Shown here one piece after another: positions 13,712 to 14,325 of a stretch of DNA of 64,000 nucleotides. Numbering within the stretch: position 1 is the first letter of the stretch; each line of letters starts with the position of its first letter. The DNA lies in NCBI GenBank assembly GCA_951406725.2, contig OX597827.1, forward strand, positions 59,954,001 to 60,018,000. Reading direction: 5' to 3'. The position numbers and the translations under genes were made by a program. The stretch is from Octopus vulgaris. Its lineage: Eukaryota. The notes beneath the pieces were generated by a model. It saw only the letters and a list, made by a program, of their open reading frames with translations, had not been told where the DNA came from and did no database searches.

Positions 13712-14325
13712 ATATATGGGTACAGGACATGAAAAAGAAGTTGAACACAATGAGAAACGAAAATATAAAAACAAAAACATAGAAACGAACTTTTTTTCGG
13801 ACAACGAAAAAACAGTGAAACGAGACATACAACATAAAGAATATCCCCCTTCTTCAGTTGTCCCTGTTTCAACTACACGTTTCGAAGGTAAGGACAAGAC
13901 ACGACTTCGTTGAAACAGTCCTTCCTGCAAAGCAAGTTAAATAAAATTTGGGGTTTTTTGCGGAGGGTGAAAGTGGTAACAAGAGCAGGAGAGTGAGAAC
14001 AAAACAGTAAAAACAATAAAAAAAGTAAAAACAGTAAAAGACAGAACAATGAGAACAAAACAGTACAAACAAACGATGAGGGCTGTTAAGCCAAGACGAT
14101 GGAAAAATTATTCTGAACGCTTAGGAAGACGAGCTTATGAAGAGACAGGATAAGCCCGTTTAGTCTTTGTGAAGGTAGTAGTCAGAAAGATAGATTCCCT
14201 CTTGTCACGTGTCAGCAACGAGAGAGTCGAGGAGGAGGAGGAGGAGTAAGAGAGAGTGAACGGTGAAGGAGAGAGGAGAAGAATAGAGAAGGGTGGGAGA
14301 GAAAACCAGAAAGGATTAAGAACCT
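13712..14325 (-). mobile_element. ORF-less retrozyme/Penelope-like element A with permuted hammerhead
   Basis: Flanked by (TA)n. CT-rich 5' region, GTCACGTG at 14204-14211, ribozyme at 13851-13924, U-rich 3' region ending tgtcctgtaccc (similar ends at 32420 and 43750). Boundaries approximate. Confidence 0.55.
13851..13924 (-). ncRNA. Non-circularly permuted (pseudoknotted) hammerhead, family A
   Basis: GAAGG-a-CUGUUUCAAC-gaagu-CGUGU-C-UUGUCC-uua-CCUUC-GAA-ACGUG-ua-GUUGAAACAG-GGACAA-CUGAAGA. Stem II 5 bp, extra helix 10 bp, stem III 5 bp (2 GU), stem I 6 bp, GUC site. Confidence 0.8.

Follow-up and report, generated by a model that had tools for sequence, protein, structure and literature searches.

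A hammerhead-like motif with a predicted split core, drawing its stem II strand from upstream, in a high-copy octopus repeat

The window, by which we mean the whole 64-kb stretch of Octopus vulgaris DNA that was analysed, contains a copy of a non-coding repeat (family A) that carries a hammerhead-like motif on its minus strand (Table 1). The 3' terminus of the repeat, near 13718, is conserved, and a TA/TG-rich tail common to the copies comes after it; 5,225 first-look candidates for the repeat were found in the 2.8-Gb genome. Its hammerhead blocks occur in the order S-G-C, that is, the cleavage site, then GAAA, then CUGAnGA. The window holds five further copies of the same fold, which belong to four other sequence families (B, C, D and F); the two family C copies lie in a partial tandem at 51820-53435 (minus strand).

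Table 1. The family A motif and the other copies of the fold (window positions; minus-strand features read from the higher to the lower number)
Feature	Position	Strand	Basis
Family A non-coding repeat copy, ~0.7 kb, flanked by TA-rich microsatellites	13616..14324	-	BLAST coverage by 29 other loci
Stem II 5' strand GAAGG, from the upstream leader (G10.1 = 13924)	13920..13924	-	covariation across families
Extra helix X, 5' strand (10 nt; one base after GAAGG, spacer next)	13909..13918	-	sequence; partner-shuffle test
Stem III strand and GUC triplet (GUC 13900-13898)	13898..13903	-	sequence
Predicted cut	between 13898 and 13897	-	analogy; excess of breakpoints in related families
Stem I 5' strand, 6 Watson-Crick pairs, covaries between families	13892..13897 (with 13863-13858)	-	
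3-nt linker from stem I to stem II, like type SGC	13889..13891	-	sequence; PMC10085705, in part
Stem II 3' strand CCUUC (13888-13884), then conserved GAAA	13880..13888	-	
Stem III second strand; the family's next 3 nt absent here	13876..13880	-	
Extra helix X, 3' strand, flush against stem I	13864..13873	-	sequence; partner-shuffle test
Stem I 3' strand (13863-13858) and CUGAAGA core (13857-13851)	13851..13863	-	
Predicted exit of the chain from the core, past A9	13851	-	
Downstream purine tail A-GGGGG; not conserved as a stem II strand	13845..13850	-	
Family B copy, same fold	32530..32606	-	
Family C copy, downstream unit of 843-bp partial tandem	51935..52007	-	
Family C copy, upstream unit of 843-bp partial tandem	52778..52850	-	
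Family D copy, same fold	57461..57533	-	
Family F copy, same fold; downstream 10-mer at 61300-61291	61311..61390	-	

The sequence-only reading, made from the letters of the window, had described a perfect 10-bp helix directly adjoining stem I and two possible partners for the CCUUC strand of stem II, and all of these are present in the family A copy. The upstream partner, GAAGG, is fully complementary, and the downstream run of G residues forms three G-C and two G·U pairs with CCUUC. The A-GGGU tail described for family B is likewise in the window, as is the downstream 10-mer described for family F, the latter being private to one of 30 copies. The same reading had called the family A motif the cleanest copy, and this does not hold: three nucleotides that follow stem III in the other 29 of 30 aligned loci are missing, two of the stem III pairs are G·U, at positions that are Watson-Crick in the family majority, and family C is far younger. 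Of 36 family A copies, seven have the perfect 10-bp helix and three have the five-G tail, the more usual form of the tail being four G followed by A (23/36).

When the family A copy is folded with a nested model, to which pseudoknots lie outside, approximately half of the ensemble has the leader paired into stem I. This off fold (13923-13916 with 13895-13886, minus strand) occupies stem I and the linker, and is a stronger competitor than the downstream tail; a downstream hairpin also covers the core. Because of these competing folds, the family A copy may be slow or dead. The leader-into-stem-I competitor was not seen by eye in the C and D families.

A scan of the 64-kb window with Rfam gave no match at the gathering score for any hammerhead model. 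This is expected, since the block order is permuted, and the minimal type I hammerhead-like motifs of the window were missed as well. There are six of these, at 12623 (+), 14425 (+), 566 (-), 43592 (+), 30941 (-) and 31245 (-); they are of the Penelope type, several have CUGUnGA cores, and none reaches the Rfam score. The window also contains a short element at 14710-14860 with inverted ends around TTCGAA, whose CUGAUGA at 14825 (+) fits no tested layout, a LINE fragment with a zf-RVT domain at 24351-25256 (-), and two related tandem repeats (34248-34733 and 38182-38640) with units of 183-185 bp and approximately 2.5 copies each.

The reading of the motif as a permuted hammerhead is supported genome-wide. 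Two patterns that encode only the triplet, GAAA and CUGAnGA in S-G-C order, with no stem II term, gave 2,299 and 14,108 exact-core matches, compared with 10 and 10 for the reversed controls. Over 1.0 Mb of stretches that were not targeted, 0.1 Mb of it adjoining the window, profiles gave 41 matches, of which 32 cover the core; extrapolated from this sample, copies of the fold in the genome would number in the tens of thousands. In the five families of the window, the core letters of CUGAnGA, GAAA and NUH are invariant, and the G10.1-C11.1 and A15.1-U16.1 pairs are both found, stems I, II and III lying around the core, provided that stem II is formed with the upstream strand.

The sequence-only reading had left the partner of stem II open, and here the comparative data favour the upstream strand. 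The majority sequences of families A, B, C, D and F each have five of five Watson-Crick pairs upstream, with four different sequences that always start with G10.1-C11.1. A prediction was written beforehand, and 20 places were then fetched for unusual letters before GAAA. Sixteen of these stretches gave 19 matches, with at least four of five Watson-Crick pairs upstream in 16/19 and downstream in 0/19; three matches have fewer than four upstream, and six reach four downstream when G·U is allowed. Among the unique intact matches (123 of 128 were kept; five were dropped because there was no C before GAAA, or a TA repeat upstream), at least four Watson-Crick pairs are found upstream in 108 copies and downstream in one, and the G10.1-C11.1 pair is present in 108; the copies are related, so that such counts, and the cells given below, are not independent events. 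Counting G·U brings 58/123 copies, from the A, B and F clades, to four downstream pairs.

The upstream score is the best of 13-16 positions and was thus compared with class-shuffled partners (30 classes, 2,000 shuffles). The observed mean is 3.86 versus a null of 3.02, and none of the 2,000 shuffles reaches it. For the downstream strand, the values are 1.05 versus 1.24 for Watson-Crick pairs (p ~0.96), and 1.96 versus 1.78 when G·U is included (p ~0.07). With a fixed register per clade (615 cells), the upstream strand has 468 Watson-Crick and 35 G·U pairs, compared with 201 and 144 for the downstream strand; positions 10.2-10.5 have at least three Watson-Crick pair types each, and the changes between families are two-sided at four of the five stem II positions. 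Conservation of the downstream complementarity, on which the earlier idea of two partners depended, is therefore not borne out across families: it is no better than shuffled and fails in C, D and F. The blind set, the shuffle and the fixed-register counts all lead us to reject the downstream strand as a conserved stem II partner. A conserved hairpin in the 40 nt past the core was also rejected (mean z-scores of -0.8 to +0.4 by clade).

Helix X, which brings the number of covarying helices to four, has a mean energy of -6.9 kcal/mol, compared with -3.8 kcal/mol for shuffled partners and -4.6 kcal/mol for the best shuffle. Between stem III and helix X, 39/49 C/D copies have a kink-turn pattern (a 3-nt bulge, then tandem G·A/A·G); it is found in 1/18 family A copies, with one orientation scripted, and was also seen by eye in the octopus Naiad. 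The two bases that precede G10.1 are GG in 71/123 copies and AG in 18/123, and the G just before G10.1 may stack near A9.

The copies have the ends of a retroelement. Family C is young, with 40/40 scored matches 100% identical over the ribozyme and spread across chromosomes, so that an active partner protein should exist. Insertion into TA repeats, a fixed 3' end, variable 5' truncation and partial tandems are all found for families C and A. For family C, 13/23 listed 3' ends are at about +139..+149, with TA repeats next to them or nearby, and arrays reach approximately three units of 843 bp, with 5' ends spread over the unit. Pieces of family C also occur in contigs of four sequencing runs (organisms A-D), including an 873-nt contig that fits a circle or a tandem equally well. 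The ends and the arrays fit reverse transcription from a fixed internal start, with cleaved linear RNA as the template of the short copies and circular or uncleaved RNA as that of the arrays; arrays longer than the unit fit either a circular RNA or an uncleaved multimer.

An excess of breakpoints lies just past the predicted cut. On reverse-strand matches, which are listed once per place and come mainly from families C and D, not A, 741 TA-repeat junctions fall within +11..-2 of the predicted cut versus 395 in -3..-49, a 6.3-fold difference in density. In the untargeted 1.0 Mb, 10 profile starts fall in -4..+12 versus seven in -105..-5, with eight more in +13..+63 (two edge matches were removed). 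The breakpoints are spread over +0..+11 with no single-base peak, and part of the peak may be due to AT-rich microhomology in the linker. The excess suggests that the motif is cleaved in vivo.

A similar layout appears in Naiads. In the parts of Craig et al. 2021 considered here (PMC8557442), no canonical hammerhead is reported for Naiads, and a "HHR_half_core" is flagged in Naiad_Ovul and seven others; a fold is not put forward. In the part of the supplement to that paper that was covered, which spans some of the 54 consensus sequences, 15 CUGAUGA places were seen. Judged by eye, seven of them have the split layout, close to the consensus 3' end and with an upstream stem II of 6 bp: Naiad_Obim, Naiad_Ovul, three Naiads from Acropora and two sequences without labels (parts 12 and 19). 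In two more (parts 14 and 15) the order is the usual C-then-G, and the other six are located elsewhere. Exact matches to the octopus Naiad motif number 397 in the genome, compared with 0 for the control, and the upstream stem II of the motif is intact in two of four loci. Families A-F resemble Naiads, as these are described in the same parts of PMC8557442, in targeting TA repeats, in being truncated at the 5' end, and in occurring as partial tandems and inverted copies; they differ in that they encode no protein, and what they have in common with the octopus Naiad is the fold, with no sequence similarity detectable. The Naiad supplement contains no exact match to 11-12-mers taken from families A-F, and no ORF with an N-terminal GIY-YIG and RT was found in the family A copy or beside intact matches. 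From the shared fold and the TA targets, we infer that families A-F are probably mobilised by a Naiad protein. Craig et al. call cephalopod Naiads long inactive (PMC8557442, in the parts considered), which sits badly with the youth of family C.

Other candidates for a partner were considered. A Penelope-like family with a C-terminal GIY-YIG lies beside one family B copy, and was rejected as linked because the motif occurs in the query locus only of 30 (L316-L345) and in 3/12 wider stretches, with its position unfixed. A Neptune-like element in locus L311 was rejected since the B copies lie outside its repeat, and three HERO-like fragments have no motif in their flanks, within which the 3' UTR does not clearly fall. 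The L311 element (2778-7053) is seemingly intact, with a 775-aa RT and GIY-YIG frame, an upstream 454-aa frame and a 100% identical inverted partial copy, and has a CCGAAGA-type hammerhead-like motif in its terminal repeat. A Penelope-like family at L346-L349 has a 1,312-aa frame (RT, C-terminal GIY-YIG and an asparagine-rich insert), many intact copies, and tandem and inverted ends, with a type I-like motif in the terminal repeat (L347, ~7220-7270). Locus L131 is an ordinary non-LTR retrozyme: an array with units of ~355 bp, every one of which carries a canonical type I hammerhead (seven matches, both strands).

Our main reading, to which we assign a probability of roughly three in four, is that the family A copy is a mildly decayed member of a high-copy non-coding retroelement, and that its motif forms a knotted hammerhead with an upstream stem II and a core that is open between A9 and G10.1, which likely cuts itself after GUC. 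If stem II takes its 5' strand from the leader, the chain would leave the core past A9, and G10.1 would enter on another strand. The leader would first form stem II with the strand that precedes GAAA and then, after a gap of one base, helix X with the strand that precedes stem I; helix X would clamp stems I and II together and stand in for the usual loop-loop contact. The downstream G-run would be incidental or, at most, a clade-limited alternative partner. Cleavage would give the RNA of the element a defined 5' end, and a Naiad-type Penelope-like protein acting in trans would prime reverse transcription approximately 140-180 nt downstream of the cut; a cleaved linear template would yield short copies ending at the cut, and a circular or uncleaved one longer-than-unit arrays.

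In the crystal structure of the hammerhead, a metal is bound by the A9 phosphate and N7 of G10.1, both of which would remain in the split core. An open core is plausible for this reason, and because Penelope hammerheads already carry a conserved single extra base between positions 9 and 10.1 (PMC4209133, in the parts considered). In the known alignments described in the parts of Eckert et al. 2023 considered here (PMC10085705), CUGAnGA is separated from its stems by no more than 1-2 nt, so that the open core is without tested precedent.

Three other readings compete with the split core. One is an ordinary type SGC hammerhead with an intact block C, in which stem II would come from the downstream tail with one bulged A, and the upstream match would be incidental. 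The block order and the 3-nt linker do match type SGC, and a bulged base past A9 is usual in Penelope hammerheads; however, the preference for upstream pairing in the 123 copies runs against it, helix X pairs with the 5' leader rather than with a 3' segment, and C, D, F and the Naiads contradict it, so that we regard it as very improbable. A second reading retains both partners as a switch, in which the G-rich tail of the A and B clades would exchange with the upstream strand, e.g., after cleavage, and thereby tune activity. For the family A copy, the duplex energies are -5.8 kcal/mol with the tail and -7.3 kcal/mol with the upstream strand, AGG is found just past the core in 53 intact copies, and the majority tails make four pairs each when G·U is included (G-C, G·U, G·U, G-C for A; G-C, G·U, G-C, U·G for B). 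The fifth G is rare among family A copies, as noted above, and the common 4-bp form has an energy of 0.0 versus -4.6 kcal/mol upstream. The tail also stays AGGG where the strand before GAAA changes within the A clade, the 10-mer of family F is confined to a single copy, and downstream pairing is absent from C, D and the Naiads seen and not above the shuffle. On balance, we find such a switch distinctly unlikely.

The remaining alternative is that the conserved fold is a structure of hammerhead shape or a signal for protein binding, whose cleavage is poor or requires protein; the breakpoint peak would be due to stalling of the reverse transcriptase or to microhomology. In the parts of the sources considered, Penelope hammerheads cleave weakly in vitro (PMC4209133), and the one from Anolis depends on protein and can be dispensed with for insertion in vitro (PMC11167929), so that the function of the predicted cleavage may be modest; in addition, the octopus arrays of up to approximately three units run across the cut site. 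Against this, all catalytic letters, together with the NUH triplet and A15.1-U16.1, are retained across the families and the Naiads, from cnidarians to molluscs, and stalling is expected at the 3' base of the structure (~+50), not at 0..+12. We consider this explanation unlikely, and prefer the self-cutting, split-core hammerhead.

A broader claim, which we think probable if somewhat less secure than the main reading, is that the motif represents a fourth break point in the hammerhead, i.e., an active natural ribozyme of four strand segments whose catalytic strand is open between A9 and G10.1. It would be the missing ribozyme of Naiads across animal phyla, would cut in vivo, and would be among the genome's most abundant ribozymes (tens of thousands of copies), invisible to three-block descriptors. 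The six-permutation scheme of the hammerhead assumes that CUGAnGA and the stem II strand are inseparable, and a conserved, high-copy natural form in which the two are apart would enlarge the range of folds known for the best-studied small ribozyme. If true, it would also be the first non-circular permutation in an animal genome within the literature searched, and would explain why Naiad retrotransposons seemed to be without a hammerhead. The role of cleavage in Penelope-like transposition becomes testable with an 80-nt transcript. The idea of a strand-exchange switch itself adds little; the interesting result is the upstream partner that the comparative data favour.

Neither a hammerhead open between A9 and G10.1 nor an SGC-order motif in an animal genome was found in the literature searched, outside of which most subscription papers lie, and no such layout appears in the parts considered of PMC13725137, PMC10162972, PMC544870, PMC3088659 and bioRxiv 10.64898/2026.07.22.740005.

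Among known systems, the non-LTR retrozymes and Penelope-like elements, with their minimal type I hammerheads, resemble the octopus repeats in being non-autonomous tandem elements with one hammerhead per unit, and these hammerheads tolerate an extra base between 9 and 10.1 (PMC4209133 and bioRxiv 10.64898/2026.07.22.740005, in the parts considered). The octopus families do have tandem units, like non-LTR retrozymes, but their ribozyme is not type I: minimal type I hammerheads, as described in those parts, have C-G-S order, a local hairpin as stem II and a minimal stem III, whereas the octopus motif is pseudoknotted and has a stem III of 4-7 bp. The closest relative is type SGC (HRIMA-1 and SGC variants; PMC10085705, in the parts considered), which has the same site-GAAA-CUGAnGA order, a short linker, an extra helix that joins stems I and II, and all core letters. 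The type SGC examples in those parts come from metatranscriptomes, none being from the genome of a known organism, and the octopus motif consists of animal genomic repeats. Block order and short linker agree, with 14-16 nt from the cut to GAAA in 121/123 copies. In type SGC, as described there, CUGAnGA comes before both the 5' strand of stem II and the strand that pairs into the extra helix; in the octopus motif both of these strands lie 5' of the site, so that block C is split. A stem II strand within 1-2 nt past CUGAnGA is hence lacking (downstream pairing being confined to the single copy mentioned above), and where type SGC has an interaction helix with a segment lying 3' of stem II, the partner of helix X is the 5' leader. 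Judged from its sequence, the motif would work like a hammerhead and resembles type SGC, but lacks these two features of membership; its layout equals that of type SGC with the segment that holds the stem II strand and the interaction strand moved from the 3' to the 5' end.
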